Counted from the first letter of the stretch, positions 40,986 through 63,019 are shown. The stretch: DNA of 64,000 bases from a virus (IMGVR_UViG_3300006810_000046:831-64830); one strand, 5' to 3'. Numbers and translations are program-made. The notes: generated by a model not told the origin, from the letters alone.

Positions 40986-41660
40986 ATGAAAATTAATTTA
41001 TATGATGACGGAATAGGATTTATAGAATACGACCAACACATGGGAGACGATGTAACGATTGTTAATGCAGCCAGAGTTTCTTTTGGTAAGAAAAAAGATA
41101 CCTTAGATGAAAGAGATCAAAAGCTGATTAAATATCTTATTAAACATAAACATACATCAACCCTTGAACACAACGTTGTTACATTTAGAATTAAAGTCCC
41201 ACTTTTTGTCGCAAGACAACACCATAGACATAGAACGTGGTCGTATAACGAAATAAGTCGAAGATACACAGATATTGACATTCAGTTCTTTTCTCCCAAA
41301 GAATTTAGAACCCAGCACAAGTCCAACAGACAAGCTTCAAATTCAGATGATTTAATAGATCCTCAGATGTCTCATTTTGGAGGAACTGCATCAAGAATAG
41401 TTGAAAACCATCATGCTGCGTCGCTGCAATTGTATCGAAACCTTGTAAGTGCTGGAGTTTGTCGAGAGCAAGCAAGAGGTGTTCTTCCTCAAAACATGTA
41501 TACTGAATACATGGCAACAGTTAACTTAAACAATTTAATTAAGTTTATTAATCTAAGAACTCATGAAGGAGCTCAAAAAGAAATAGTAGATCTTGCTCAT
41601 GGGATGATAGATATTTGTAAGAAATTTTGGCCAAACATATTTGAAATACTTGAAAGGTGA
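40986..41660 (+). CDS. thyX: FAD-dependent thymidylate synthase (canonical)
   Basis: AARVSF, H.S.LEH, RQHHRHRTWSYNEISRRY (RHRx7SxR), EQARGVLP and AQKEI. Confidence 0.93.
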   Translation: MKINLYDDGIGFIEYDQHMGDDVTIVNAARVSFGKKKDTLDERDQKLIKYLIKHKHTSTLEHNVVTFRIKVPLFVARQHHRHRTWSYNEISRRYTDIDIQFFSPKEFRTQHKSNRQASNSDDLIDPQMSHFGGTASRIVENHHAASLQLYRNLVSAGVCREQARGVLPQNMYTEYMATVNLNNLIKFINLRTHEGAQKEIVDLAHGMIDICKKFWPNIFEILER

Positions 41661-41662
41661 AT

Positions 41663-45518: not shown

Positions 45519-45580
45519 GTTAAGTTATGTTAAGTTAAGTTATGTTAAGTTAAGTTAAGTTAAGTTAAGTTCGTAGTTAA
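45519..45580. repeat. Tandem pentanucleotide array (GTTAW)x10 plus degenerate copies
   Basis: Ten consecutive GTTAA/GTTAT units at 45519-45568, then GTTCG-TA-GTTAA. Confidence 0.9.
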
Positions 45581-45626
45581 AGTTTAAATAAAAAATATAT
45601 AGCGTATTTAACAAACGGAGGATAAT

Positions 45627-48523: not shown

Positions 48524-49348
48524 ATGCCAGAAGGCCCAGAAGTTAAAATAACAACAGATTTTCTTAAAAAATTTATTGGAAAAGAATTTAGCAACTTAGA
48601 AATACTATCAGGAAGATATGCTAAAAAAGGTGAGGTCCCTGGATTGTCTGATGTTTTTCTTCCTGCAAAGATAGTTGACGTTAATTGCAAAGGAAAGTTT
48701 ATTTATTTTACAATGCAATATAAAGTGAATGAAACATGTGCGAAAGTATTTCATATGTTTAGTACGCTAGGGATGACAGGAATGTGGTCACAAGAAAAAA
48801 CAAAACATTCTCGTTTTTCAATTTTATTTGATGACGAAACATATCTTTATTATAATGACGTCCGAAACTTTGGAACGCTAAAATTTGTTCATCAAACATC
48901 AGAGCTTAACAAGAAACTATCTTCGCTAGGTCCCGATATGCTTTCTGAGACTTTAACAAAAGACGAGTTTAAATCAAGACTTTTAAAAAGAAAAAAGAAA
49001 ACAATTGTCGAAGCACTAATGGATCAATCCGTTGTCTCTGGGGTTGGCAATTATTTAAAATCGGAAACTTTATATGCTGCTGGTATTAAACCATCAAGAA
49101 CTGTAGAAAGTTTAACAGAAGCTGAATTTGACAATCTAAATAAATCTATACATAATATTATAAGAGTTTCATACAACCAGGGTGGCGCTACAATTAAAAA
49201 CTATAGACAACCCAATGGAAAAAGTGGTGTCTTTAGTAGAAGATTTGCAGTATACAATTGTAAAACTGATCCTTATAATAATATAATTGTAAAGGAAAAA
49301 ACAAAGGATGGGCGCTCAACTTTTTGGGTACCTGAATTACAAAAATAA
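48524..49348 (+). CDS. mutM: Fpg/Nei DNA glycosylase with a zinc-less finger
   Basis: MPEGPEV catalytic N-terminus, KGKF, LGMTG, D.RNFG, LGPD, H2TH LMDQ..VSGVGNY and C-terminal GRSTFW.P..Q lacking the four-Cys zinc finger. Confidence 0.88.
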   Translation: MPEGPEVKITTDFLKKFIGKEFSNLEILSGRYAKKGEVPGLSDVFLPAKIVDVNCKGKFIYFTMQYKVNETCAKVFHMFSTLGMTGMWSQEKTKHSRFSILFDDETYLYYNDVRNFGTLKFVHQTSELNKKLSSLGPDMLSETLTKDEFKSRLLKRKKKTIVEALMDQSVVSGVGNYLKSETLYAAGIKPSRTVESLTEAEFDNLNKSIHNIIRVSYNQGGATIKNYRQPNGKSGVFSRRFAVYNCKTDPYNNIIVKEKTKDGRSTFWVPELQK

Positions 49349-49361
49349 AAAAGGAGAAAAT

Positions 49362-49580
49362 ATGACAAAATTAAAACTAACAGATGAAGTCGTCGCACAC
49401 ATTGTTCAATTATTACAAATTGGGCTTCTTGAAGGAACAGATATCTCAGATCATTTTCGAAGAATTGAATTGTCGAGTGACGAAGACGGAATGTTGTACT
49501 TAACTGAAGAATACGAGAAGACATTTCAAGAGTCATTAGAAAAAATGAAAGAGTTTATTGAAGAACAAAAAGGTGAGTAG
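49362..49580 (+). CDS. Hypothetical protein
   Basis: Likely start ATG 49362 after AAGGAG; begins MTKLKLTDEVVAHIVQLLQ. Confidence 0.65.
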   Translation: MTKLKLTDEVVAHIVQLLQIGLLEGTDISDHFRRIELSSDEDGMLYLTEEYEKTFQESLEKMKEFIEEQKGE

Positions 49581-49582
49581 GC

Positions 49583-49957
49583 ATGGATTGTAAACTTGAA
49601 GCAATGTTTAAAATGAGAAAAGATTTCATTGACAGACTTGAAAAAGAGATACCTGGAAGTTATCCTAATGTTCCTGTTGATATTTCCACAAAGTCTGGTC
49701 AAAAGCTTTGTAGGGAGCTAGCTCTGAAAGGAGTTGAAGAAATGTTTGAAGCGCTACAACATTTAAAAAACTGGAAGGACCATAAGCTAACTGACGTTCC
49801 AGATGTCGATGCTGAAGAGTACCTTGAAGAAATTGTTGATGCTTTTAACTACTTCTTTTCTTTAATTATTGCTTCAGGTTTTAGCCATGATGATCTTTTT
49901 TCTGCATACGTTAAAAAAGACAAAAAAATACACGAAAGACTAACAAATAAATACTAG
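49583..49957 (+). CDS. All-alpha NTP pyrophosphatase (dimeric dUTPase/dCTPase-like)
   Basis: EEMFEA...NWK.HK and EEIVDAFNYF acidic motifs; C-terminal Y.KK.....ER...Y. Confidence 0.7.
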   Translation: MDCKLEAMFKMRKDFIDRLEKEIPGSYPNVPVDISTKSGQKLCRELALKGVEEMFEALQHLKNWKDHKLTDVPDVDAEEYLEEIVDAFNYFFSLIIASGFSHDDLFSAYVKKDKKIHERLTNKY

Positions 49958-49964
49958 GTGACAA

Positions 49965-50918
49965 ATGACATTCAAAGAAATGATGAACAAGCAATTAGAA
50001 TACAATAAAAAAATAGTCGGAAGATCCGATCAATTATCGCAGGAACTAAAGGAAAAGATAACACAAGAAAACGTATTATGCGCACATGCTGAACTCAGTG
50101 CATTAGTTAATGCAACAAACTATAAAAATCATCACCAACACTCAGAGCCTGTTGCCAATAGAAAAACTGTTCTTTACGAGACTGTTGACGTTATTAGATA
50201 TATGATGGCAACATTAAACACATGGGGAATTACCCCAAAAGAGTTTGAAAGCGCCTTTGATAAAAAAGATATTTATCTTAATAAGCTTCATGAGTTTCAA
50301 CAAAAAAAATGGAACAAAGATCAACCTGTAGTTATTGTCGATATTGACGATGTTCTTGCAGAATTTAGATCTGGTTTTGCTGAGTGGCTTGGTAAAAACT
50401 TTAATATTGATGTTGATTTAAATACAAAAGAATATTACTTTATAAGTGCACTCTCCAAAATAGACATGAACTCAGAAGCTGTGTTTAAAATGTTTTTAAA
50501 TGAAGGCGGCTTTGCAAATCTTAGTGTAAATACTTCTACACTGGAGCTTTTGCATCAGCTAAAACATCGTGGATATTGGATTCATTTACTTACAGCGCGA
50601 CCCGAGGAAGAACTACAATGTTTATATGATACTTATTACTGGATTTGGCAGCAAAACATTCCATGTGATGCAATCTCATTTTCACCTGAAAAATTTAGAT
50701 GGTGTGCTAAGTCGCAGTACTATGATGAAGGCGCTATCAGACTTGCTATTGATGATGCTCCTAAGCACGCAGAAGATTATGCCAAGCACGGTATAAAGTG
50801 TTTTGTTCCTCAAAAACCGTATAATGAATACCTTGATGATAAAAACATTTTTCTTTTTAAGGACTATTATCACATAACCAATCTACTAATGACACAGGGG
50901 TTAATAAAAGAACGATGA
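49965..50918 (+). CDS. Fusion of an all-alpha NTP-pyrophosphatase-like domain and a HAD 5'(3')-deoxyribonucleotidase-like domain
   Basis: N-terminal HAELS.L...NYK.H and YETVDVIRY. C-terminal HAD motifs VDIDDVL, LTARP and IDDAP. Confidence 0.7.
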   Translation: MTFKEMMNKQLEYNKKIVGRSDQLSQELKEKITQENVLCAHAELSALVNATNYKNHHQHSEPVANRKTVLYETVDVIRYMMATLNTWGITPKEFESAFDKKDIYLNKLHEFQQKKWNKDQPVVIVDIDDVLAEFRSGFAEWLGKNFNIDVDLNTKEYYFISALSKIDMNSEAVFKMFLNEGGFANLSVNTSTLELLHQLKHRGYWIHLLTARPEEELQCLYDTYYWIWQQNIPCDAISFSPEKFRWCAKSQYYDEGAIRLAIDDAPKHAEDYAKHGIKCFVPQKPYNEYLDDKNIFLFKDYYHITNLLMTQGLIKER

Positions 50919-51145
50919 TAATATTTTTAATAACAACGCTAGCCTTTGGACAAGAAGGTGATAGAAAAATAAACTACCAAAAAGAGACAGAAATTGACTT
51001 CGATGGTCTAGAGATAACAGGAGAAATGATAAAACCTCAAGGAGCTTTGATCATTGAAAGAAGCGGTATAAGATTTAACCCACTTATTAGTCTTAGAACT
51101 GACTGGAACCAAGAAATGTCGTCTTCAGTTAAAGAGATAAAATAG
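50915..51145 (+). CDS. cglF: Homologue of myxobacterial gliding-motility protein CglF/GltF
   Basis: Signal peptide followed by Y.K.T.IDFD..EI.GE..KP.G......R....F.PLI.LR.D...E...S, which matches the CglF family pattern as I recall it. Not verified by search. Confidence 0.6.
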   Translation: MIIFLITTLAFGQEGDRKINYQKETEIDFDGLEITGEMIKPQGALIIERSGIRFNPLISLRTDWNQEMSSSVKEIK

Positions 51146-51200
51146 TTCTGATAATTATAATTGTACACTATATTTATTGTTAAGTCTCAAGGAGGAGAAT

Positions 51201-52040
51201 ATGAAAATAAGTAAAAACAGGCTTAGTAGTCTTGTAAGCCAGGTAATCAAAGAAGAGAGTGATGCCTTTGCTGTCCAGGGAGAAGCTCCTAATCTTCCGG
51301 AAGGGTTTAAAGACTTTAAATTTGATAGTGAAGCTCATTCTTATGTTAACTTTGTTCCTGGTCCTTTTAAAAAATATGACAAATATTTTTATGATCCTTA
51401 TAAAAAAGGAAACGAATACATGTTTCAAGTTAAAGTCAATGGAACAGTAAAAAATATTTTACCTGGAAAACCTGGCCATGATGTTTTAATGGGGAGAATT
51501 AAAAAAGGAAACGAATATCAAATTTCTCAAACCAAATCTGGACTTTCCAAGGCAGCTAAAGATGTCGCTAATGCTATTGTTAGTTTTCTTGATTTAACCA
51601 ACTATGGTGACGGAGAAGGAGAAATAAACGATGAATTAAAGGACTATCTTTTTCAAATAAACACAGAAAAAGGTATAGAAGCTATTAAAAACTCAAGTGA
51701 TCCTTACTATAAGCACGCTGTCTTCATGCATCTAAGACAAGCGTGCCAAAAAAATAAAAATGTAAAACTAGCTGATTGTATTGATGCCGCAGCCAAGTAC
51801 CTGGACCTCAAAGAGCCTAGCGAAGATGAGCTTTCAAAATCACAAAGTTATCAAAATGCTAAAAAGGCTGCTGGTGATTCTCCTTTGTTTAAAAATTCCA
51901 TAGAACCTGTGCGCAGTACTTTTGGTGATCCCAAAGAGTCTGACTCTAAAGAGCCTAAAAATGAATCAAGCCAAATAAACGAAAAAAGAATAAGAGCAAT
52001 AATTAGACACGAATTAATTAGAGCACAAAGAAAAAGATAA
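51201..52040 (+). CDS. Hypothetical protein with N- and C-terminal leader-type motifs
   Basis: Likely start ATG 51201 after GGAGG. N-terminus MKISKNRLSSLVSQVIKEE; C-terminus INEKRIRAIIRHEL. Confidence 0.7.
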   Translation: MKISKNRLSSLVSQVIKEESDAFAVQGEAPNLPEGFKDFKFDSEAHSYVNFVPGPFKKYDKYFYDPYKKGNEYMFQVKVNGTVKNILPGKPGHDVLMGRIKKGNEYQISQTKSGLSKAAKDVANAIVSFLDLTNYGDGEGEINDELKDYLFQINTEKGIEAIKNSSDPYYKHAVFMHLRQACQKNKNVKLADCIDAAAKYLDLKEPSEDELSKSQSYQNAKKAAGDSPLFKNSIEPVRSTFGDPKESDSKEPKNESSQINEKRIRAIIRHELIRAQRKR

Positions 52041-52058
52041 TTTAGTCTAGACCAAAAC

Positions 52059-52086
52059 AAAAGGCCAGCAATTGCTGGCCTTTTTT
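52059..52086 (+). terminator. Rho-independent terminator
   Basis: AAAAGGCCAGC-AATT-GCTGGCCTTTT followed by further Ts. Confidence 0.85.
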
Positions 52087-52087
52087 A

Positions 52088-52116
52088 TTGTAAAATAAAA
52101 AACAAATTATTATAAT
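52088..52116 (+). promoter_or_regulatory. Class A promoter
   Basis: TTGTAA-N17-TATAAT upstream of the ThyX-like gene. Confidence 0.7.
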
Positions 52117-52143
52117 AAAATAAAAACAAAAAGGAGAAAATAT

Positions 52144-53130
52144 ATGCCTCAAAATTTAGACTTAAAACCCATTACACTTCCAATGCAATTAAAGTTTGGA
52201 CAAAAACCAAATACAATTTTTTATAATAACCTTGAAGCTTTAAAAGTCGAGCTAGTTGATGCACCTACAAGATCGCAAGCACTTAATGTTGCCTGGCAGT
52301 ACGTAAAGGCAACATGGGCAGATCACCACGACGATACAAACCCGAGCACAACTTCTTTAAAAGAGTTATCAGCAAATCTAGAAGATGTTCTTAACTTTCG
52401 TGCCTTACCCACTCCTATGGAGTGTCTAGGTTTTACATTTAAGCTCAGTGGACTTTCTTTTCAAGAAGTAACGCATATTATACGACATCGAGCTGGATCC
52501 TTTGCTGCACAATGTACGGGCGATCGAGACCTTCGTGATGATAGTGCAGTAATTCCAGAAGCAGTCCAGAACTCACCTGAATTTCTTGAAAGGTGGATTA
52601 ATCTAGTAAATGAATCAAAACAGCTCTACGCTGACATGTGTGACTCTAGGGCAGTCTCTATGATGGATGCTCGTATGATTCTTCCTAAGGCAATGACATC
52701 TTTTTACCTAATGCGATTAAATCTTAAAGATCTGCTAGGTTTTATTAATCAAAGACAAGACATGCAGATTCAACCTGCTGCTGATAATTTAATTGCTGCA
52801 TATATGGCACGTGAGCTTGTGAAGGTTCTACCAGAAGCTTCTACCAAGATTAATTTTGAGAAACCAGATATGCATTATGTTAATACATTTAGAGTCCCAG
52901 ATGGAAAAGGCGGTTGGACAAGTCGAGGTACAAACCTTTACTGGCCAGAACCTAAAAACGATAAATTTGAATATCACCCACAGGACTCAATTTATCAGGC
53001 TAGACGTGAAGATATTAATGGTACAGAGAACCCGGGAACTAAAACAGTTTTTACAAAGCTATGGGAAGATGCTGTAAATACTGTAAATGTTGTTAAGCGA
53101 TCTCATGATGACTTCATGGGAAGAAATTAA
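52144..53130 (+). CDS. Divergent ThyX-family flavoprotein
   Basis: TPME...FTF.L.G.S...THIIRHRAGSFAAQCTGDR, DARMILP and NLKDL..FI.QR. The RHRx7S motif has Cys in place of Ser, and there is a C-terminal extension. Confidence 0.75.
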   Translation: MPQNLDLKPITLPMQLKFGQKPNTIFYNNLEALKVELVDAPTRSQALNVAWQYVKATWADHHDDTNPSTTSLKELSANLEDVLNFRALPTPMECLGFTFKLSGLSFQEVTHIIRHRAGSFAAQCTGDRDLRDDSAVIPEAVQNSPEFLERWINLVNESKQLYADMCDSRAVSMMDARMILPKAMTSFYLMRLNLKDLLGFINQRQDMQIQPAADNLIAAYMARELVKVLPEASTKINFEKPDMHYVNTFRVPDGKGGWTSRGTNLYWPEPKNDKFEYHPQDSIYQARREDINGTENPGTKTVFTKLWEDAVNTVNVVKRSHDDFMGRN

Positions 53131-53154
53131 CATTTAAGAAATAGATACTTAGTT

Positions 53155-53189
53155 AAAGCAAAGATTTTCTTTCGGAATCTTTGCTTTTT
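53155..53189 (+). terminator. Rho-independent terminator
   Basis: AAAGCAAAGATT...AATCTTTGCTTT followed by Ts. Confidence 0.75.
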
Positions 53190-53272
53190 GATTTTATTCT
53201 ATTTGTTGTATTTATTTTGAATAAAAGAATTTTTATGTATGTCTGGCATATATATTGTTAAAGCTTTAATGG

Positions 53273-53941
53273 ATGCAAAAGATGAAAAAAGAAACGCGGA
53301 AGATTGTTAAACTGATGTTAATTGAGAGAATAAAAAGAATATCAGCAACTAAAAATCCTAAAGACTCAAAGTATCCACTAACAATAACAGCAGATGTTTA
53401 TCCTGTTTCAACAGATCAGCTTGCTGGATTTACTCCTGGATATAGAGATAGAAAGTTAAAAATGTTACAAGGTCATGCTAGTGATTTATCTCGTACTCTG
53501 ACTTTTCAAGGAGACTATGCTAAGTCTGGAAACTCAGGTTTAAAAACGCTTAGGCTAAAAATAAGCGAAAAAGACTGGCCTGATATTTGGTATTTTCCAA
53601 ATACTGAAATTGAAAGAAGACTATTTCTTCAAAACTTTAGAATTCAAAATCTAGACATAATATCTCCTTATGATGAAGGAGGGGCAGAGTATGAGAAACT
53701 TTTCTCTGATCCTGATATAAACATATCCTTTGAGTTTGAAGAAAGTGAAGAAAGTGAAGAAAGTGAAGAAAGTGAAGAAAGTGAAGAAAGTGAAAAAAGC
53801 AAAAGAGCAGAAACTATTTCTAGTATCTTAAGCGGCTTTGACTTTATTATCGAGGATGCTAGAGAAAATAATGAAATAGAATATTCAAACATGGTTCATG
53901 AAGCAATGTTGCTATTTATAAAAGAAGTTACAAAGAGGTAA
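53273..53941 (+). CDS. Hypothetical protein with leader motif and (EES)6 tract
   Basis: 222 aa; N-terminus MQKMKKETRKIVKLMLIE. Confidence 0.65.
   Translation: MQKMKKETRKIVKLMLIERIKRISATKNPKDSKYPLTITADVYPVSTDQLAGFTPGYRDRKLKMLQGHASDLSRTLTFQGDYAKSGNSGLKTLRLKISEKDWPDIWYFPNTEIERRLFLQNFRIQNLDIISPYDEGGAEYEKLFSDPDINISFEFEESEESEESEESEESEESEKSKRAETISSILSGFDFIIEDARENNEIEYSNMVHEAMLLFIKEVTKR
53738..53791 (+). repeat. Perfect 9-bp tandem repeat (GAAGAAAGT)x6
   Basis: Read directly from the sequence; encodes EES six times. Confidence 0.95.
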
Positions 53942-53943
53942 AT

Positions 53944-54653
53944 ATGAAAGTTAATAAAAGTATTCTTAAAAAAATGATAAAAGAGGGTCTTTATAATTCA
54001 AAGGAATATAAAAGGTTAAATGAAAAGTTTTATCCTAAAAACATTAGAAAGCTTAATAAAGGTGAAGATCCTACAAAGAAGACATCTCACGAAGCTGAAG
54101 GCTTTATCGAACCTACTATCTTTCCTGATGAGTTTGATTCTGACGTTTATCCATTTGCAGATCCGTCCCATCCGGATCATGATACAATGAAAAGAGGTTT
54201 AAAGACGACCCGAGCGCAATGTCTGATTATAGGCAGCCTGCAAAACTAAGAACAATGTTCTATAAAGATTCAAAATCCGGACTAAAGACACATAGGCCCA
54301 AGCTAAGTGCCTCTGACCTTGAAGGCATCGAAGGCCTAAGATATCCAGAGTCTGATTCTATGTCTGCTCAAAAAATAAACACGGAACTAGGCTCTCAATC
54401 TAGAGGAGAGTTTGCACCTTTTGATGAAGGCGGTGATTCTTTTTCAGATGAGATGACAACTGCTAGAGGGCCTAGTAAAAGAGAGAGAATGGCACAAGCT
54501 TCAAATAAACTTGATGAAGTTGCAATTAGCATACAGGAAAAAATAGCTATGCTCGAAGAAGAGGGCGGAAACGAAGAAAGAGTCGAATATCTTAAAGATC
54601 TTTATGATAACATTTTGATGGTTCTTGAAGGAATTGATTCAATTAATATTTAA
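53944..54653 (+). CDS. Hypothetical leader-bearing protein, probably one gene joined by a -1 frameshift (ORFs 53944..54249 and 54219..54653)
   Basis: Starts MKVNKSILKKMIKE. The -1 frame is open from 54183, a T-TTA-AAG heptamer lies at 54198-54204, and the second ORF lacks a clear RBS. Confidence 0.55.
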
Positions 54654-54658
54654 AATTT

Positions 54659-54687
54659 GTGTAAATTAATTTCTTCTTTATTATAAT
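54659..54687 (+). promoter_or_regulatory. Class A promoter
   Basis: GTGTAA-N17-TATAAT. Confidence 0.7.
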
Positions 54688-54715
54688 AAAATAAAATAAA
54701 AACAAAGGAGAAATT

Positions 54716-55174
54716 ATGAATGGTTCTAGTTTAGGAAAAGTATATTTGGCAAGCGGATGGTTTTCACCTGAATGGCTTGAAGAAGTTGAAAATATTAAGT
54801 CTGTCTTCGATGAGTTTGGTATTAGCTATTTTTCACCAAAAGATGAAAATCTTTGTGACAATGATGCAAACGAATCGATGCAAGATCAGATCTTTAGTGG
54901 AAATATTAAACATCTTCACGAATGTGATTGGATGCTTTGCAATACAAGAAATAAAGATATGGGAAGTATTTTTGAAGCTGGCTACATGAATTGTCTTAAT
55001 AAACCAATTGTTTATTTTTGCGACGGCCTGCCACCAGGCGCTCAGTTTAATCTAATGCTAGCAGCTAGCGGACTAACAGTTTGTACTTCTTTAAAGCAAC
55101 TTCGAAATTATCTTAAAGATTGCATAGGATCTGGAGAGCTTGTTGAGGCACGATATCAAGGAGAAATTGAATAA
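54716..55174 (+). CDS. Nucleoside 2-deoxyribosyltransferase / nucleotide N-hydrolase family protein
   Basis: KVYLASGWFS, FSPKD, IF..NI..L..CD and DMGSIFEAGY (catalytic Glu), followed by KPIV and NLML. Confidence 0.8.
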   Translation: MNGSSLGKVYLASGWFSPEWLEEVENIKSVFDEFGISYFSPKDENLCDNDANESMQDQIFSGNIKHLHECDWMLCNTRNKDMGSIFEAGYMNCLNKPIVYFCDGLPPGAQFNLMLAASGLTVCTSLKQLRNYLKDCIGSGELVEARYQGEIE

Positions 55175-55195
55175 AGATGAACAATCTTTAGTCGT

Positions 55196-55223
55196 GAAAG
55201 GTTCCTAAGGGGAACCTTTCTTT
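55196..55223 (+). terminator. Hairpin/terminator
   Basis: GAAAGGTTCC-TAAG-GGGAACCTTTC followed by TTT. Confidence 0.65.
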
Positions 55224-55252
55224 GTGTAAACGATTTAAAAATTTAATATAAT
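55224..55252 (+). promoter_or_regulatory. Class A promoter
   Basis: GTGTAA-N17-TATAAT upstream of dnaE. Confidence 0.7.
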
Positions 55253-55273
55253 AAAATAAAAAAAGGAGAAACA

Positions 55274-58200
55274 ATGGTAAATAACAACCTAATCATCCCA
55301 CCACCATCGAGGTTTGTTGGACTTCATGCACATTCAGGTGCAGGATCTCCCTACGATGGAATCGGATATCCTGACAAACATATTGATTTTGTACTATCAA
55401 ATGGAATGGATGCATGGTGCTTGACAGACCATGGAAATGGAAATGGTCTTGCTCATGCGCATACGCATGCCAAGAAGTTAAAAAAGCAAGGCATTAATTA
55501 TCGTCAGCTTTACGGAGTTGAGTTTTATTTTGTGCCCTCACTTGATGGATGGCGATCAGAATACGATGCGCATAGAACTTCGGTTCAAAATGCAAAAACA
55601 GAAAAAGAAGCTAAATCAACAGCAGACATCGAGTCAGAAGATGAAATTTCAGGTGGTCTTGTTATTGAAGATGAAGAAGAAACAAAATCAGAATTTGATA
55701 TGAATAACTGGAAACGAAGATATCATCTTGTAGTCTTTGCAAAAAATCAAAAAGGATTACAAAATCTTTTTACACTCGTTAAACGTTCATATTCAGAGGG
55801 GTTCTATAGATTTCCTCGAATTGACTATAAAATGTTAAAAGAACATGGTGAAGGTCTTATTGTTTCAACTGCATGTATTGGTGGGTTTCCTGCTGGAATC
55901 ATTGCAAGAGGTGAAGCGTTTAAAAAATCTCATGATGAAATCATATCTGAACTTGAAAATATGTCAGATCGATTTATTGATGCTGTTGGTGTAGGAAACT
56001 TTAATCTTGAAGTTCAATTTAACTCACTTAAAATGCAACATACAACAAATAAATATCTTATTGATCTTCATCGAAGAACCAATATCCCGCTTGTTGCAAC
56101 AGCAGACTCTCACTATTATTCTCCTGATATGTGGGAAGCACGTGAACTTTATAAAAAGCTAGGTCGAATGGGTGCTAGAGGCGGAGAACAACAAAAACTG
56201 CCGGCATTTGAAGATTTAAAGTGTGAGTTATATCCAAAAAATGCACAACAAATGTGGGAAGAATATCTTAAACATCACGACTCATACGATTTTTATCAAG
56301 GGTCTGAGCAAATAATATCTGACGCCATTGAAAGGACTCATGATATTGCCTGGCAAGAGTGCAGCGAGGTTTGGTTTGATGAAGATGCAAAGCTTCCAAA
56401 CTTTTCAACTCCTGAAAAATCTGCTATGGCACAGCTATCTGATCGTGTAAAGCAAGCACTTATTGATGAAGGTCTTGACAAGAAACCTGAATATGTCGAG
56501 CGTGCTATTATGGAGCTAGATGATATTAAGCATCTTGGATTTGAAAACTACTTCTTGACAATGACAAAAGTCTTTGATATCGCAGCTGAGTCAACTATTT
56601 TAGGTCCGGGTCGAGGATCTGGTGCAGGTTCACTTGTTAATTACCTTCTTGGTATTACATCAACAGATCCTATTAAATACGGTTTGCTATGGGAACGTTT
56701 TTTACATCGCCAAAAAGCAGGCTGGCCTGATATTGATACTGATGCTGGCGATCGAGATGTTTTGATTGATGCAGCAAAATCACTTGTAGGTGAAGAATCT
56801 GTTGTTCCTGTTAGCAACTTTAATACGTTAAAGCTGAAATCACTTGTAAAAGACGTTGCCAAGTTTTATGGAATCGACTTTGGTGAAGTTAATGCAATGA
56901 CAGCAAATCTGCAAGATGAAGTAATGCATAAAGCAATGGGAGATCATGAAGAAAAGTCAACGTATGTTTTAACACACGAAGACTCGATGAAATATTCAGA
57001 AAAGTATCGAGAATTCATGGAGATGTACCCCAAGGTTTGTGAGCAGGTCCAGTCTTTATTTATGGAAAATAGATCTATTGGCCGACATGCGGGTGGTGTT
57101 TTAATTTGTCCTGACTTAGAAAAGCACATGCCTGTTATCAAGGTTCGAGGTGAACTTCAAACACCTTGGTCAGAAGGAATGAACTTTCGGCACCTTGAGC
57201 CAAACGGATTTCTTAAATTTGACTTCTTAGGACTAGCAACCTTAAAAATGGTAGAAGACTGCATTAGACTTATTCTCAGAAAGCAGAACCCAGGAAAGAA
57301 GATTACATTCTTTAACATTAAGAAATTCTTTGATGAAAATCTAAACTGTCGCTATAATGACTTAAACGATCCTGATGTTTGGAAATATGTTTATGAAGAA
57401 GGTAACTTCGTGCAAGTGTTTCAGTTTACTCAACAGGGCGCACGTAATTTCTGTAAAGAGGCTAAACCTACATCAATCGAGAGCTAGCAGCAATTACTGC
57501 AATTTATCGTCCCGGTCCGCTGGCAGCCAATGTACATAGAAAATATGTTAAGGCCAAAAACAATCCTCAAGACATTGTATACGATCATGATATTATTAGA
57601 GATATCCTTGAGGAGTCTTTTGGTTTCACAGTGTTTCAAGAGCAATTCATGTTATTGGCACAAAAACTATCAGGCTTTGATAAAGGTGCTTCTGACAAAA
57701 TGCGCAAGACACTTGTTAAAAAATCTCTTGATGCAAACGATGCAAAGGCAAAAGAACGTGTTGAACTTAGAAAGAAATTTGTAGGAGGCGCAATCAAGCT
57801 CTCGGGTCTAGCAGAAGATAAAGCAGTTAAACTTTATGAAACAATTGAGGCATTCTCTGCTTATGGTTTTAACAAATCTCACGCTGTTAGCTATGCAATT
57901 GACTCCTATTATTCAGCTTGGCTTCACACACATTATGAAAAAGAATGGCTAGCAACTTGTTTGCAAACACTGAATGGATCCAATAAGTTTTCAAAGATTA
58001 TATCTGAAATCAAGTCAATGGGATACAAGGTTCTTCCAGTAGATATTAATGAATCTTCTGATACTTGGGTATATTCTGAAAAGAGAAAAGGTTTTGTTCC
58101 TCCTTTGACAGCTATTAAGGGTATTGGTTCTGCTGCAGTTGATGAAATCATTGAAAAGAGACCTTTTAACTCTGTGTATGATTTGCTTTATGCAGGCGAT

Positions 58201-58833
58201 AAATGGAAACCAAAGAAAATTAACAAAACCTGTCTAGACGCAATCTGCAAGGTCGAAGGATTAAACTCCTTGGTAGAATTTGAAAACGGTACCTTTAAGA
58301 ATCACCGCCAGCTTCATGAAATTATCATTTCAAACTATGCTACATTAAGAAAGAATATTTACGGCATGACAAAAACACAGCTTAAAAAACTTGAAGCTGA
58401 TGGCATTGAACCCGAGAGATTTCTAGATTCGCAATTGGAAACTGTTTCAGGGCTCGAAGACTGGACACGTGTTGAAAAAATTCATAACTTTGTAAATCTT
58501 ATGGAGAGCGTTGATAAATCAATTGTATTTCCCGAGGAGATTATGGAAAGAATTAATAATGCTCGCATTGACTCTTTTGTCGAGGTGGAAAAAACCGGAA
58601 AAGGCATTGGTTGGTTTTGTATTCAAGAACTAATCAAAAAGACAACAAAGAACGGAAAGGTCTTTTATCGAGCCAAAGTTTGTGATTACGATATGAATAC
58701 AGCCTGGGTAAGGATCTGGACAGAGTTTAAAGAAGAACCCTCTACTTATACAATGTGGCTAGCTGAACTAGGATACAGTGATTCGTGGGGCTATTCGACC
58801 TCTTCATACAAGATGCGTCAAATCAATGTGTAA
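55274..58833 (+). CDS. dnaE: DNA polymerase III alpha subunit, broken by a 1-nt frameshift near 57480
   Basis: PHP motifs LHAHS, TDHG and DSHY; GRGSGAGSLVNYLLGIT; PDIDTD; GRHAGG; KFDFLGL. The -1 frame continues ELAAITAIYRPGPL...FQEQFM...YGFNKSHAVSY. Confidence 0.9.
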
Positions 58834-58856
58834 ATGATCTAATATATTAATATAAT
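58828..58856 (+). promoter_or_regulatory. Class A promoter overlapping the dnaE stop codon
   Basis: GTGTAA-N17-TATAAT. Confidence 0.65.
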
Positions 58857-58861
58857 AAAAT

Positions 58862-58907
58862 CATAGAAGCTCAACATGATACTTTTATGTGCTTCTATGG
58901 TTTTTCT
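58862..58907 (+). terminator. Hairpin with T-run (terminator or attenuator)
   Basis: CATAGAAGC...GCTTCTATG stem followed by GTTTTTCT. Confidence 0.55.
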
Positions 58908-58931
58908 TATATGGAAAACAAAGGAGAATTA

Positions 58932-59834
58932 ATGCTATTAAAAAATGTATTTATAGAAGGTCCTGACTGCTCTGGAAAAACAACAGTTATAAACTCTATC
59001 CATAAAAACACAAACTACAGATATCATATGTTTGATAGATCAAGAATGTCACAATATTTGTTCTCAGTCATGTATGAAAGAACTGACTTAAAATGGTCAA
59101 AGGACCTTTATCACCAAGAGCTTTGTGATCTTTCTAATCTTTATGTGGTTTTGCTGCCTGATCTTGACGTGGTGTTAGATAGATTTCAAAAAAGAGGCGA
59201 TGAAATTCATGATAAGTCAGGTATTGAAAGTGTTTATTTTAATTTTAAAAAGTTTGCAATTGAAGAATCAAGATTTCCAAATGTCATAGTGATAAGAGAT
59301 TCAGAAAATCAGTGGAAAGACGTTTTAAATGCAATTGAAAAGTATGAATCAAAAAAAGAATACGAAGTTGCTAAAGAGTTTGTATATGCAAAATCTTCAA
59401 AAGAGTCAGTTGGACTAAAAATATCAGAAATCGGAAGTTTAAATGACTTAAAAAAAGATTATAATTGCATGAAGTTTAAAAAAGAAAAGGAATATTATGA
59501 AACCATTGAAAAACAATTTATTCAAAAGTTTATTAATGAAACAACAGGAGATAATGAATACTCTAGAAAAGAACTTTATGACTCTAGAAGATTTATCTTT
59601 GTTAGTGATACTTGTATATCATCTATTCATGCAATATGTCGTGATGGTAAAATAACATTCCAGGCCTACATGCGATCTTCTAATGTAGATCAGGTTAGGC
59701 ATGATTACAACTTTATAAGAAATCTAGTTATTGTATTTAAAAACTTATTACTAGGGTCTTCTAGCATTCCGTTTGACTTAGAAGCATATCAACTTGATTT
59801 GCTTTTTGGGTCAGCACATGTTGTTCAAACCTAA
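58932..59834 (+). CDS. Fusion of a dNMP (thymidylate-like) kinase and a compact thymidylate synthase/dCMP hydroxymethylase-like domain
   Basis: Likely start ATG 58932 after AAGGAG. N-terminal IEGPDCSGKTT, FDRS..S and RF.KRGDE. C-terminal SRRFI, DTCIS.IH, YMRSSN, RHDY and GSAH. Confidence 0.7.
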   Translation: MLLKNVFIEGPDCSGKTTVINSIHKNTNYRYHMFDRSRMSQYLFSVMYERTDLKWSKDLYHQELCDLSNLYVVLLPDLDVVLDRFQKRGDEIHDKSGIESVYFNFKKFAIEESRFPNVIVIRDSENQWKDVLNAIEKYESKKEYEVAKEFVYAKSSKESVGLKISEIGSLNDLKKDYNCMKFKKEKEYYETIEKQFIQKFINETTGDNEYSRKELYDSRRFIFVSDTCISSIHAICRDGKITFQAYMRSSNVDQVRHDYNFIRNLVIVFKNLLLGSSSIPFDLEAYQLDLLFGSAHVVQT

Positions 59835-59843
59835 GGAGGAAAA

Positions 59844-60431
59844 ATGAAAAAAGAACTACAGAACAAGCTATATGAAAAGTTTCCTAAGATATTTAGGCAA
59901 AAAGACCTTTCAATGAAAGAGACAGCAATGTGTTGGGGAATCAGTTGCGGAGATGGGTGGTACAATATTATCGAAGTACTTTGTCATAATATCCAACATC
60001 TTGTTGATAATCCACATAAAAACATTAAAATGTATAGTGAGTGGATAGAAAAAGAGAAGGAAAAAGATGAGCCTTCAAATGATACAATTGAAAGATATGT
60101 AGAATATATTGAAAAAGAAAAAAAGAAAATCATTCCGCAACTAGAGGCGGTTCAAGTAAAGGAAAAATATGGAACACTTAGGTTTTATTTGTATGGATAT
60201 CCCGAACAAGAATTAATTAGAAACACAGTGGACGCATATATCAGCTTTGCTGAAGATATGTCAGGTGTGACATGTGAAGAATGCGGTTCTCCTGGAAACA
60301 CGAGTGGCACTCATTGGATCAAAACAATATGTCAGTCTTGTGAAGAGGAAAATGCTGCTGAAAGATCTCGAATGATTTGGGAGTCTAAACAATTAAAAAT
60401 TGACTTCTCAGGAGGCAAAGATGAATCTTGA
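59844..60431 (+). CDS. Phage hypothetical protein with a C-terminal zinc ribbon
   Basis: CGDGW, QVKEKYGTLRFY and CEECG.PG...WIKTICQSC. Confidence 0.75.
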   Translation: MKKELQNKLYEKFPKIFRQKDLSMKETAMCWGISCGDGWYNIIEVLCHNIQHLVDNPHKNIKMYSEWIEKEKEKDEPSNDTIERYVEYIEKEKKKIIPQLEAVQVKEKYGTLRFYLYGYPEQELIRNTVDAYISFAEDMSGVTCEECGSPGNTSGTHWIKTICQSCEEENAAERSRMIWESKQLKIDFSGGKDES

Positions 60432-60502
60432 GTGGTTTTATATTAATATTTGGAAAAAAGCTAGAAAAGAAGCAGAAGAAAGAGCTAAGGAGCGAAAGAA
60501 AA

Positions 60503-60676
60503 ATGAAACCCGGGAGCAAAGTATTTCACCAGAAACTGGGGACAGGAGTGATACTAACAATGGAAAAGAGAAATAGAGCAATGGTTTTATTTTTTAAAAA
60601 AAGCGAATTCTTAGCTAGAATTGGAAGTGTAAAAGACTTAATAGTAATAGAGGAAAATAATGAAAATAAAAATTAA
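60503..60676 (+). CDS. Small hypothetical protein (SH3-like)
   Basis: MKPGSKVFHQKLGTGVIL...VLF after AAGGAG. Confidence 0.5.
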   Translation: MKPGSKVFHQKLGTGVILTMEKRNRAMVLFFKKSEFLARIGSVKDLIVIEENNENKN

Positions 60677-61076
60677 AAAACTTCACAATGATGCCGTAAT
60701 TCCACAGTATGCAAAGCCAGGAGATGCTGGCATGGATTTAACTGCGGTCGATGTATCCGCTGATCTTGGATATTTAACTTATAAAACCGGAATAGCAATT
60801 CAGATACCTGAAGGTCATGTAGGATTGCTATTCCCTAGATCTTCTATCTACAAGACTGGTCAAACACTTTCAAATTGTGTTGGAGTTATCGATTCAGGAT
60901 ACAGAGGAGAGATTATGATGAAGTTTACTCCTTCACCTTACAGTAATGACTATCAGATTGGTGATAGAATAGGTCAGATAATGATTTTACCTTATCCGCA
61001 AATTAAGTTTGAAGAAGTAGAGTCGCTTGATGAATCTGATCGCGGAGAAGGCGGATATGGAAGCACCGGTAAATGA
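60660..61076 (+). CDS. dut: Trimeric dUTPase
   Basis: DAGMDL, PRSS, GVIDSGYRGEI, GDRIGQ and RGEGGYGSTG. Confidence 0.95.
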   Translation: MKIKIKKLHNDAVIPQYAKPGDAGMDLTAVDVSADLGYLTYKTGIAIQIPEGHVGLLFPRSSIYKTGQTLSNCVGVIDSGYRGEIMMKFTPSPYSNDYQIGDRIGQIMILPYPQIKFEEVESLDESDRGEGGYGSTGK

Positions 61077-61314
61077 AAAAGACATAAAGCCTGGTGACTT
61101 TATTTTAATAAAAATAATGAGCAGGTGGAAAAAATACGAAGTGTCAAGTGTTAAGGACGATTGGATTTACTTTAAAAATCCCGATGGGAAAGAATTTTTC
61201 CTGAATACTAAAATACACATTAATCACATGAAATATCCTAAGGTTAAAAAACCTAAAAAAGATGAGAAACCAAAAGCTCAAAAGAAAAAAACAAGGAAAA
61301 AGAAAAATGAGTGA
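61057..61314 (+). CDS. Small basic hypothetical protein
   Basis: IKPGDFILIK...YEV..V....IYF and a Lys-rich tail. Start is uncertain. Confidence 0.5.
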   Translation: MEAPVNEKDIKPGDFILIKIMSRWKKYEVSSVKDDWIYFKNPDGKEFFLNTKIHINHMKYPKVKKPKKDEKPKAQKKKTRKKKNE

Positions 61315-61867
61315 ATACGATTTTATGCTAAAAAGAATACAAAAGCTGATTATTGATGTTCCAGACTTTCCAAAGTCTGGAATTCTATTTAAAGACATCT
61401 CGCCTATCTTCAGTGATCAAAGCGAGCTAAGAAACTTAATCACAGCGCAAGCACGTTTCATAAAAAACAACGGGCGAGACTTTGATAAAATCGTGGCGAT
61501 AGAATCACGAGGTTTTCTTTTAGGGGCACTTTTAGCTTACGAAACAGGTTTACCCCTAGTGCTTGCCAGAAAAGCAGGAAAGCTGCCTAGAGAAACTGTG
61601 TCAGCTGCTTACGGGCTAGAGTACGGAAGCGACAAAATTGAGATTCACACTAGTGACATTAAACAAGACGATCACATCTTGATTGTTGACGATGTTTTGG
61701 CAACTGGTGGAACAGCGTCAGCAGTTGCTGATATTGTTGACTCGCTAGGCGGAAAAGTTGCAGGTTTTTGGTTTCTCATGGAAGTAAAAGGATTGGAAGG
61801 TCAAGATTCTTTGATTAATAACTGTCCATTTATTGATGCGAGTGATATAGAGGTAGTTTTAAGCTAA
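61307..61867 (+). CDS. apt: Adenine phosphoribosyltransferase
   Basis: VPDFPKSGILFKDISP, IESRGF, RKAGKLP, YGLEYG and LIVDDVLATGGT. Confidence 0.93.
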   Translation: MSEYDFMLKRIQKLIIDVPDFPKSGILFKDISPIFSDQSELRNLITAQARFIKNNGRDFDKIVAIESRGFLLGALLAYETGLPLVLARKAGKLPRETVSAAYGLEYGSDKIEIHTSDIKQDDHILIVDDVLATGGTASAVADIVDSLGGKVAGFWFLMEVKGLEGQDSLINNCPFIDASDIEVVLS

Positions 61868-61896
61868 GACTGATATATGTTTAAAGCGGAGATTTA

Positions 61897-61938
61897 ATGA
61901 GAAATCATATTAGAAAACTAATATTAGAAGTCATTTAA
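61897..61938 (+). CDS. 13-codon micro-ORF consisting only of the leader motif
   Basis: RBS GCGGAG, then MRNHIRKLILEVI followed by TAA-AAA-TAA. Confidence 0.45.
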   Translation: MRNHIRKLILEVI

Positions 61939-62017
61939 AAATAATTGATGCAACTACATTTTAATTTATTTTTTGTCTTTGTTGATTAAAATATACAATA
62001 TTAACAAGGAGATAAAA

Positions 62018-63019
62018 ATGAAAAGAGCATTAGTAACAGGTGGTTGTGGCTTTATTGGAAGCAACCTGACAAAAAAACTAGTAAAACTAGGCTGGCAAGT
62101 AGATGTAGTAGACAATATGTCTAACGGTCACCTTGAGTTATTGGAAGGTTTAAAACTAAGAGTCTTGCCAAATGGCTCGTTTTTTACAGCTTATAAAATG
62201 CAGCCTGATTTAAAAAGAGAAAAAGACGAAGTCTTGGTAATTCAAGATGACTTTTCAGATGACAATGTACTGAATGCAGTTTATCAGGGCTTGTATGATA
62301 CAATATTTCACCAAGCAGCTATGCCGAGAGTTTCTTATTCTGTTGAATTTCCAGCAGAAACGACATACGAAAACATCTCTAAAACTATTAAGCTATTTGA
62401 AGCTGCATCAGAATCTGTCAATAGAATCGTTTGGGCATCCTCATCCTCAGTTTACGGAGGAGCTAAAAACCTGCCTACAAAAGAAACAGAAAAGAAAGAT
62501 CCAAAAAGCCCATATGCGTGGCAGAAATCAGCTATAGAGGATTTTTCTAAATTAGCCTATGATTTATATGGCCTTGACATTGTTTGTTTGCGATACTTTA
62601 ACGTCTTTGGTCCAGGACAGTACGGCGACAGTCCTTATTCCACGGCAGTTTCTGCATGGTGTCATGCAATTAAAAGTGGTGAAGAATGTAGATCAGACGG
62701 TGATGGCGAGCAAACACGCGACATGTGTTATATTGATAACGTTGTTAGCGCAAATATTTTGGCAGCTATGAGAAAAGAACCTTTTAAAGGTGCCTGCTAT
62801 AATATCGCTTGTGGTAGAAAAGTTTCAAACAATGAAATACTTGAAGCTTTAAAAGATCGACTAGGCGATAAAGTAAAAGTTAGACATGCTCCCGAAAGAG
62901 CTGGAGATGTAAAGCACACATTAGCCAGTTATCAAAAAGCCCATACAGACTTTGGATACGAGCCACTTGTTCATTTTTGGGAAGGTTTAGAGAAAACACT
63001 TGTCTGGTGGAATATATAA
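62018..63019 (+). CDS. NAD-dependent nucleotide-sugar epimerase/dehydratase (extended SDR)
   Basis: Likely start ATG 62018. VTGGCGFIGS, ASSSSVYG, YAWQK (YxxxK), LRYFNVFGP and GDGEQTRD. Confidence 0.92.
   Translation: MKRALVTGGCGFIGSNLTKKLVKLGWQVDVVDNMSNGHLELLEGLKLRVLPNGSFFTAYKMQPDLKREKDEVLVIQDDFSDDNVLNAVYQGLYDTIFHQAAMPRVSYSVEFPAETTYENISKTIKLFEAASESVNRIVWASSSSVYGGAKNLPTKETEKKDPKSPYAWQKSAIEDFSKLAYDLYGLDIVCLRYFNVFGPGQYGDSPYSTAVSAWCHAIKSGEECRSDGDGEQTRDMCYIDNVVSANILAAMRKEPFKGACYNIACGRKVSNNEILEALKDRLGDKVKVRHAPERAGDVKHTLASYQKAHTDFGYEPLVHFWEGLEKTLVWWNI

Follow-up and report, generated by a model that had tools for sequence, protein, structure and literature searches.

The 64,000-nucleotide stretch of viral DNA IMGVR_UViG_3300006810_000046:831-64830 (here the window, i.e., the whole stretch that was analysed) carries between positions 48524 and 63019, around the gene for a DnaE-type replicative polymerase, a set of nucleotide-metabolism genes that is kept together in at least four phage lineages. 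Its main components are a divergent paralogue of the thymidylate synthase ThyX, a nucleoside 2-deoxyribosyltransferase-type protein (NDT), all-alpha dNTP pyrophosphatases, a 5'-nucleotidase and, in some loci, a thymidylate-kinase-fold kinase fused to a miniature ThyA-fold domain (mini-TS). Judging from the sequences, the proposal that the span is a pre-replicative module, with which the phage DnaE would replicate using a non-canonical pyrimidine, a C5-modified cytosine being the likeliest, stands at about even between right and wrong. Were it right, a widespread aquatic phage group would use a base-replacement pathway built from parts new to that role (ThyX-fold paralogue, mini ThyA-fold domain and deoxyribosyltransferase), pyrimidine C5 chemistry would have gained a new enzyme type, and the sequencing, cutting and detection of such phages, as well as their restriction by hosts, would be affected. 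The question is open to a direct test, since the cultured Geobacillus phage GR1, whose host is G. stearothermophilus ATCC 10149, has this core as well.

A sequence-only reading of the window had already suggested a pathway of this kind. All of the genes that it listed are present, on the + strand, and an adenine phosphoribosyltransferase gene (61262-61867) that it had left out is to be added. What survives of its interpretation is a single conserved and co-regulated module beside DnaE; what does not is the NDT as an N-glycosidase, and the sugar epimerase, dUTPase and canonical ThyX as parts of the core.

A gene set kept in several phage lineages

In a broad scan of a viral collection, 377 stretches matched the search pattern, 317 of them encode a relative and 80 loci were kept; after clustering of open reading frames (ORFs) and removal of identical copies, there were 82 distinct loci, with the window and GR1 included, from at least four phage lineages. 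Neighbours were counted within 8-10 kb of the ThyX paralogue. NDT is such a neighbour in 76 of the 82 loci (three of the six that lack it have less than 1.6 kb of sequence 3' of the paralogue), a 5'-nucleotidase in 72, an all-alpha pyrophosphatase in 68 and DnaE in 56. The nucleotidase is of HAD type, as a fusion, in 39 loci and of the HD YfbR type in 33; no locus has both and ten have neither. Less frequent are a small conserved protein, 's79' (39/82), a short-chain dehydrogenase/reductase (SDR; 38/82), an Fpg/Nei glycosylase (32/82), a HhH-GPD glycosylase (21/82) and dCMP deaminase (11/82).

Gene order is also kept. In 21 loci from close relatives it is s79, pyrophosphatase, pyrophosphatase-HAD fusion, ThyX paralogue and NDT, and across all loci the paralogue and NDT are adjacent in 25, with the nucleotidase contiguous with both. 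Four architectures can be distinguished. One, to which the window belongs, is the jumbo type. The second, found in phages that have terminal repeats and genomes near 45 kb, runs primase, pyrophosphatase, kinase-NDT fusion, HD nucleotidase, paralogue, DnaE and RecA. The third has ribonucleotide reductase (RNR), NDT, HD, paralogue, SDR, DnaE, kinase/mini-TS, pyrophosphatase and dCMP deaminase, and the fourth, that of GR1, has NDT, HD, kinase, RNase H, nitroreductase, paralogue, mini-TS, DnaE and pyrophosphatase.

Do ordinary phage thymidylate synthase genes keep such company? Eighty control loci around canonical ThyX genes comprised 58 from unrelated phages and 22 from the window's own lineage, and the 58 yielded no NDT, no pyrophosphatase and no mini-TS. 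Three of the 22 own-lineage controls do carry module genes, because there the canonical ThyX gene sits near the module. Co-occurrence in related phages, which had been proposed as a check on the pathway, was thus found, the set being kept across lineages and absent from all 58 unrelated controls.

The divergent ThyX paralogue

The ThyX-fold flavoprotein paralogue (52144..53130, + strand, 328 amino acids) matches Thy1 at 1.6e-18 and scores 44.7 bits with TIGR02170, for which the equivalog cut-off is 87.9; six other members of its clade score 36.6-58.8 bits. An alignment-based AlphaFold2 model (pLDDT 96.3) predicts a ThyX fold: Foldseek gives 3gwc_B at 1.4e-10 and many other ThyX entries, and the best matches are ThyX of Mycobacterium tuberculosis and Corynebacterium glutamicum, PolB and Thermotoga maritima ThyX. 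Of the ThyX motif RHR-x(7)-S-x-R-Y, the RHR part is retained and the S-x-R-Y part is not: the loop Q-C-T-G-D-R aligns on Q-L-S-Q-R-Y of M. tuberculosis ThyX with Cys on Ser, Gly on Arg and Asp on Tyr. S-x-R-Y is missing from all 56 representatives (of clusters at 50% identity), and in 41 of them Cys stands there. In the 82 viral-locus copies the loop always has its Cys and Asp, and Leu replaces the His that canonical ThyX has in front of the T-x-x-E motif, itself kept. Only counts within the clade were used for the loop, as the MAFFT alignment mis-set it against the canonical rows. All 82 copies retain RHR and, further on, two Arg columns; the Arg columns kept are those that in T. maritima ThyX touch the uracil ring and phosphate. 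The clade further has a C-terminal extension, relative to ThyX, of roughly 90 residues, and in a tree it stands apart, at a local support of 100%, from seven canonical ThyX proteins that belong to the same group of phages. The view that this protein is something other than an ordinary ThyX, taken earlier from its divergence, is borne out by its score of half the equivalog cut-off, its replaced S-x-R-Y and its separate clade.

That clade is almost exclusively viral. An exhaustive search with the paralogue gave 125 clusters at E <=1e-10 and a word-index search 1002 proteins at E <=1e-5; among 120 matches listed, all are 78-100% identical to it and several come from ocean surveys. In a species-genome collection the only two matches of the GR1-type paralogue were on a 37-kb Exiguobacterium mexicanum contig (L105, coverage 215) and on a contig of a Ruminococcus metagenome-assembled genome (L106), both probably phage or prophage DNA. 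In the GR1-type phages a nitroreductase-family flavin reductase gene lies directly 5' of the paralogue gene (L001 9286-9885; L027:7287-7883) and its product might provide reduced flavin.

The strongest rival to a base-replacement module arises here, and we regard it as somewhat unlikely. It holds that the paralogue, though divergent, works as an ordinary thymidylate synthase in a housekeeping system of dNTP supply and re-balancing for an AT-rich phage, the other enzymes salvaging deoxyribose, swapping bases and converting surplus deoxynucleotides from host DNA, so that the phage DNA itself is canonical. The RHR and the two further Arg columns in every copy, and the low G+C content of the window (29-42%), agree with it. 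Set against these are the scores below the equivalog cut-off, the absence of S-x-R-Y from 56/56 representatives, and the 58 control loci, in which ordinary phage ThyX genes are without such neighbours. A second plain synthase would also be redundant, since the jumbo lineage has a canonical ThyX, dUTPase, RNR and dCMP deaminase. In five of nine genomes the paralogue does stand beside a canonical synthase, which is ThyX in four jumbo relatives and ThyA in G004 (98% complete), and the window is a further case of the paralogue with canonical ThyX in one genome. Two incomplete genomes have the paralogue alone: G009 (58% complete) shows the paralogue only, and in G003 (22% complete) there is no ThyA either. 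Three complete small genomes are taken up below.

A kinase fused to a miniature ThyA-fold domain

The gene at 58932..59834 (+ strand; the start is backed by the ribosome-binding site AAAGGAG, with an alternative start at 58887) encodes, as profiles and a model indicate, a kinase of thymidylate-kinase fold followed by a mini ThyA-fold domain of about 150 amino acids, the latter taking up about residues 158-315; stand-alone forms have 149-151 amino acids. Seventeen orthologues of the fusion align over their full length. The kinase domain has thymidylate kinases as its best structural matches (the N-domain aligns with that of Staphylococcus aureus at Z 13.1, with a root-mean-square deviation, rmsd, of 2.9 over 136 aligned residues) and its profile matches SPbeta YorR at 1.7e-11. 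The profile of the second domain matches residues 144-198 of T4 dCMP hydroxymethylase at 4.5e-4, with Cys148, the R-S pair and Asp179 aligned. The whole-fusion sequence gave chance-level rows only against solved structures, and it was the profiles that yielded the domain matches. With the model (pLDDT 88.3) the first Foldseek matches are the dCMP hydroxylase of HY126 (9iqu at 8.7e-7, 9iqc at 5.1e-6), followed by T4 dCMP hydroxymethylase, thymidylate synthases and MilA over 114-126 columns. A full-length ThyA fold with its N-terminal cofactor-binding half was not found; the thymidylate synthase and dCMP hydroxymethylase chains that were matched have 241-319 residues.

The catalytic Cys (position C146 of Escherichia coli) and an Asp at the N177 position are present in 21/21 sequences. 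At the D169 position 11 of the 21, the window included (RSSNV), have Asn, and ten have Asp. According to a recent paper (Lee et al. 2026, PMC13326640), N177D marks enzymes acting on dCMP and D169N marks 5-hydroxy-dCMP synthases, which bind flavin; its authors needed co-expression of the cognate dNMP kinase for the modified base to enter DNA. The earlier description of this protein as a kinase fused to a TS-fold domain is therefore right, and can be sharpened to a thymidylate kinase fold joined to an active site of cytosine type (Cys and Asp at the N177 position). For a housekeeping system the two halves point in different directions: thymidylate kinases are what the kinase domain matches best, and a plain supply of dTMP leaves no place for a conserved mini ThyA domain of dCMP type whose Cys is invariant.

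By profile search the mini-TS was found in 33 of the 82 loci, fused in 21 and alone in 12. In 14 loci of other lineages it lies directly 3' of the ThyX paralogue; GR1, whose mini-TS gene is annotated as hypothetical, is one of these. It is present in three large relatives, and most loci without it end inside DnaE. A tblastn search of a phage collection with the kinase fusion gave no match at 1e-3.

NDT, pyrophosphatases and nucleotidase

The NDT-type protein (54716..55174, + strand, 152 amino acids) matches PF05014 at 5.6e-16, with 59.2 bits and a cut-off of 28.8. Its Glu87, in the column of the catalytic Glu and aligned with the Glu of 6evs, is invariant in 18 sequences, and the C-terminal Ile-Glu is found in 17 NDT sequences and in that of the window. 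It had been taken for an N-glycosidase of the MilB/DNPH1 type, a view that is not supported, as its profile lies nearer to true nucleoside transferases: 6evs is matched at 2e-21, 1s2d at 4.3e-11 and others down to the Lactobacillus leichmannii NDT at 7e-5, whereas DNPH1 (4fyh) reaches 0.18 and MilB is absent from the matches at E up to 10. Twelve loci, most of them from phages with genomes near 45 kb, have NDT as the second part of a fusion whose first part is a P-loop domain that Pfam assigns as thymidylate-kinase-like; loci with the fusion include L048, L050 (6485-7429), L039 and L031. Because of the transferase-like profile, the C-terminal Ile-Glu, the accompanying nucleotidase and this kinase fusion, the sequences point to action on deoxynucleosides, with re-phosphorylation as the next step, and not to hydrolysis of nucleotides. 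In some jumbo relatives full genes for Hsp70 (DnaK) and DnaJ lie between NDT and DnaE (L060:10534-12396; L077:10230-11279).

Two all-alpha pyrophosphatase genes precede the paralogue. The first (49583..49957, + strand; dUTPase_2/MazG-type, Pfam dUTPase_2 at 25.8 bits against 22.9) encodes a free dNTP pyrophosphatase whose profile comes closest to the dimeric dUTPases encoded by S. aureus phages (6.9e-7), DCTPP1 being matched at about 0.01; E53, E56, E83 and D86, which we take to be metal-binding, are invariant in 29 sequences. The second (49965..50918, + strand) encodes a fusion in which an N-domain of the same type, matched by phrog_173, is followed by a putative HAD 5'(3')-deoxyribonucleotidase domain (Pfam NT5C 2.6e-5, its 24.6 bits being just under the cut-off of 24.8). 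The profile of the fusion matches the 5'(3')-deoxyribonucleotidase 3bwv at 3.5e-5 and Campylobacter jejuni dUTPase at 5e-4, and the two aspartates of its DxD motif, D126 and D128, do not vary among 25 sequences. By these likenesses the fusion would take a dNTP through the dNMP to the deoxynucleoside. The s79 gene (49362..49580, + strand, its start backed by AAGGAG) is always directly 5' of the free pyrophosphatase gene; no family was found for its product, and a protein atlas gives unnamed viral clusters only.

These degradative enzymes bear on two further alternatives. One is that thymine, not cytosine, is replaced: the paralogue would make a 5-substituted dUMP (e.g., of hydroxymethyl type), and the pyrophosphatase, nucleotidase and NDT would destroy dTTP down to thymine with the deoxyribose saved. 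This accounts better for the nucleotidase (72/82) and NDT (76/82) as core genes, because dTMP, unlike dCMP, is removable only through the nucleoside, and it agrees with the retained Arg columns that contact uracil in T. maritima ThyX and with three complete small phages that have no other thymidylate synthase. Yet in the jumbo phages and the window the canonical ThyX, and in G004 the ThyA, would make the very dTMP that has to be removed, and the mini-TS has Asp at the N177 position in 21/21 sequences, a marker of dCMP according to PMC13326640. We consider thymine replacement clearly improbable. The other alternative, modelled on MilA/MilB and the bacimethrin genes, takes the product to be a free modified pyrimidine base or nucleoside outside DNA; the base would be modified and then cut from its sugar. 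Adjacency of paralogue and NDT in 25 loci, with the nucleotidase contiguous, would suit it, and a pairing of TS-type and NDT-fold enzymes is known from mildiomycin (PMC4081090, PMC5175136). The NDT profile, however, misses MilB and gives DNPH1 at 0.18 only, the NDT-kinase fusion in 12 loci indicates re-phosphorylation, and the module is bound to DnaE by position and promoter, all of which makes a product outside DNA highly improbable.

A promoter type shared with dnaE

The sequence TGTAAA-N16-TATAAT occurs at seven sites in the window, all on the + strand, where 0.36 are expected; none of 100 shuffles reaches seven. The sites precede 6190, recA (30514), the s79/pyrophosphatase genes (49259), the ThyX paralogue (52089), NDT (54660), DnaE (55225) and the kinase fusion (58829), so that five of the seven fall inside the 48524-63019 span. 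An extended -10 element, TATAATAAAATAAAA, has 18 matches against 2.3 expected. In the motif scan the promoter-like site 5' of the s79/pyrophosphatase genes is at 49259..49287 (+ strand), with a spacer of N17. A terminator hairpin (52059-52084) and then the promoter (52089-52116) stand 5' of the paralogue (52059..52116, + strand), with a terminator-like hairpin 3' of it (53155..53187, + strand); the promoter of NDT is at 54660..54687 (+ strand), and 5' of DnaE there are again a terminator hairpin (55196-55220) and a promoter (55225-55252), i.e., 55196..55252 on the + strand. The promoter of the kinase fusion is at 58829..58856 (+ strand). The paralogue and NDT genes are thus single-gene units, each bracketed by terminator-like hairpins. 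It had been claimed that several of the genes have their own promoter of the dnaE type; this is so for the pyrophosphatases, ThyX paralogue, NDT and kinase, and not for the canonical ThyX, dUTPase and epimerase, which, like the adenine phosphoribosyltransferase, are without the motif.

DnaE itself (55274..58833, + strand; Pfam PHP, DNA_pol3_alpha and HHH_6) is represented in the window by two ORFs, one frame apart. The split is a flaw or rare variant of this record, since relatives have a single ORF of 1120-1211 amino acids through the same peptide and an extra C behind 57479, present in contigs of four out of four public runs (one of them maybe from the source sample), joins the frames.

A candidate pathway, and what weighs for and against it

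How could these parts work together? Gene identities, folds, active-site residues, the conservation of the set and its common promoter are what the sequences show; every substrate and product, and any co-operation between the paralogue and the mini-TS, we infer. In the pathway with a C5-modified cytosine, the free all-alpha pyrophosphatase would convert a canonical dNTP, presumably dCTP, to the dNMP; the mini ThyA-fold domain would bind dCMP through its Cys/Asp site and alter C5; the ThyX-fold flavoprotein, jointly with the mini-TS or in parallel to it, would contribute flavin-based chemistry; and the fused thymidylate-kinase-fold domain would phosphorylate the C5-modified product. Meanwhile, the pyrophosphatase-HAD fusion (in other lineages the HD nucleotidase) and NDT may drain unwanted canonical nucleotide to nucleoside, after which NDT and the nucleotidase may shift the deoxyribose to another base for re-phosphorylation. 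A more specific form of this, which we put forward tentatively and regard as unlikely as it stands, is that the paralogue and mini-TS constitute a two-part enzyme. The mini-TS Cys would hold dCMP and activate its C5, the paralogue would deliver a flavin-borne oxygen or one carbon, and an abundant and sizeable aquatic phage group, along with the cultivable Geobacillus phage GR1, would carry, genome-wide, a cytosine derivative made by an undescribed route.

Several observations weigh against a modified cytosine. The retained Arg columns of the paralogue argue for uracil, not cytosine, as its substrate. In the complete small genomes G001, G002 and GR1 the paralogue is the sole Thy1 match and there is no ThyA, which fits an ordinary, if divergent, thymidylate synthase and is an argument for the housekeeping explanation. 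The mini-TS is not obligatory to the module: a genome search for it gave nothing in G001 and G002, which are complete at 45-46 kb (there is a weak match, E 0.004, in the G002 locus L056), and where it is present, the D169N change varies among close orthologues. A dCMP deaminase, found near the module in 11/82 loci and in four of four large relatives, is together with kinases of thymidylate kinase fold also the normal route to dTTP, as housekeeping would have it, and NDT is of the nucleoside-transferase type that is used in salvage. A cytosine route like that of T4 needs neither a nucleotidase nor NDT. The fact that HD and HAD nucleotidases never occur together was considered as repeated evidence and rejected, since the HAD-type rows form one clade of 47 rows in the tree and the exchange of HD for HAD is a single evolutionary event. 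Glycosyltransferases were likewise rejected as a part of the module, GT1/GT2 matches (other families were not searched) being confined to two of four large relatives, at a distance of over 100 kb. Were the housekeeping explanation to prevail, the module would still represent an undescribed phage route of deoxyribose recycling.

The phage and the surroundings of the module

The viral metagenome record has 64,830 bases, nearly all of which the window covers, and its completeness by CheckV is about 21%. Relatives are of 202-284 kb, a record of 284,429 bases being rated 100% complete, and the same DNA is found in contigs of public runs labelled as freshwater, estuary and seawater metagenomes. A near-identity DNA search of a phage collection with 52000-60000 gave no match. 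Besides the DnaE-type polymerase, the window encodes a T4-type major capsid protein, tail sheath and tube, RecA, a DnaB-type helicase, ClpP, a class II-type ribonucleotide reductase and the canonical ThyX. Avoidance of palindromes in the window was nil (mean z -0.15 for 4-mers and +0.14 for 6-mers), a measure too weak to bear on protected DNA, and C5 DNA methyltransferase genes were found in none of five records.

Some genes within or near the span are context and not core. The canonical ThyX (40986-41660, + strand; 7.6e-51, with 188.4 bits against the TIGR02170 equivalog cut-off of 87.9), the trimeric dUTPase (60660-61076, + strand, 2.3e-21) and the epimerase are such. The last, an SDR of the NDP-sugar 4-epimerase/dehydratase family (62018-63019, + strand, with an alternative start at 61973; a ribosome-binding site backs 62018), matches Pfam Epimerase at 1.6e-42 and has NCBIfam matches to TviC and GalE that fall below their cut-offs; it is 61% identical to the product of a gene sited right after the kinase fusion in L016. 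The Fpg/Nei-family DNA glycosylase (48524..49348, + strand; Pfam H2TH 2.6e-20, Fapy_DNA_glyco 5.8e-15) is a common neighbour, its cluster being the one counted above, and not core. Between the dUTPase and epimerase genes, the adenine phosphoribosyltransferase (61262-61867; NF002636 at 198 bits against a cut-off of 125) falls outside the 40 gene clusters that are most widespread in the related loci. Salvage of adenine set free by NDT is one role that it could have. A small conserved ORF of 76 amino acids (50915..51145, + strand; cluster 19, in 19 loci) lies between the pyrophosphatase-HAD fusion and the paralogue. Between the paralogue and NDT, 53273-54653 contains three ORFs (222, 101 and 144 amino acids, one with an acidic (EES)n run) that matched nothing in the 21 closely related loci, nothing in GR1 and no family.

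Elsewhere in the window, an 850-amino-acid protein with HEAT and LRV repeat matches is encoded directly after the canonical ThyX (41657-44209). At 45520-45600 tandem GTTAAG/GTTATGTTAAG units are located in a long intergenic stretch 5' of 45627; the ORF at 45627-47126 gave only unnamed viral clusters in the protein atlas, with tail-fibre-like leads. Alongside DnaE, the genome also has a 402-amino-acid ORF (27412-28620) whose likeness to family A DNA polymerases (PF00476 5e-12) is limited to their C-terminal part.

Comparison with known systems

In the literature, searched as titles, openings of abstracts and passages, no description was found of this ThyX clade, of its pairing with NDT or of the kinase/mini-TS fusion. 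For GR1, a term search of the text of a paper on its endolysin (PMC10237291) gave no occurrence of 'thymidylate', 'restriction' or 'deoxyribosyltransferase'.

Phage T4 replaces its cytosine by means of the dCTPase gp56, the dCMP hydroxymethylase gp42 and the dNMP kinase gp1. Both this and the 5-hydroxy-dCMP route of RB69 (gp48), DLP3 and HY126 (AfhB; PDB 9iqu, 9iqc), as given in passages of PMC13326640, resemble the module in having an all-alpha pyrophosphatase and a partner of dNMP-kinase type. They share with it, too, a ThyA-fold enzyme with catalytic Cys and N177D, the domain in the window also having D169N, and the presence of a canonical thymidylate synthase and dCMP deaminase in the same genomes. 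The differences are also considerable. The ThyA-fold part has about 150 residues in the module, where it is fused to the kinase or alone, and 217-246 in the solved enzymes; the ThyX-fold paralogue, nucleotidase and NDT are core in the module and are without counterpart in T4; and the polymerase is DnaE, not of family B as in the T4-type systems.

With ThyX proper (PF02511, TIGR02170) the paralogue has in common its fold, RHR, the two further Arg columns and T-x-x-E, and it departs from it in reaching half the equivalog cut-off, in having Q-C-[TS]-G-D-[RK] for S-x-R-Y and Leu for His, and in its C-terminal extension. A ThyX paralogue with a changed function has a precedent, as PolB, the UMP/dUMP methylase of polyoxin biosynthesis, is described in a 2018 review as a neofunctionalised ThyX paralogue (PMC5954106). 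Like the phage protein, PolB is a ThyX paralogue that stands beside another thymidylate synthase; it serves a different C5 chemistry, as the phage protein may, and the two match structurally (4p5b_C, 1.9e-9, rmsd 2.9 over 228 columns). PolB, however, is bacterial and of secondary metabolism, whereas the loop signature and the gene neighbours of the phage clade are peculiar to it.

Phages with Z-genomes have a module of PurZ, the HD-domain dATPase DatZ and the all-alpha pyrophosphatase MazZ. Their logic is similar to that of the present module, as an all-alpha pyrophosphatase feeds a modifying enzyme and an HD phosphohydrolase removes the canonical competitor. There is no PurZ in the present case and, as the central enzymes are of ThyX fold and ThyA fold, the target would be a pyrimidine and not adenine. 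By analogy, the module resembles the base-replacement systems in its logic, with pyrophosphatase, C5-modifying enzyme, dedicated kinase and a polymerase of its own, while the parts of which it is made are unusual.

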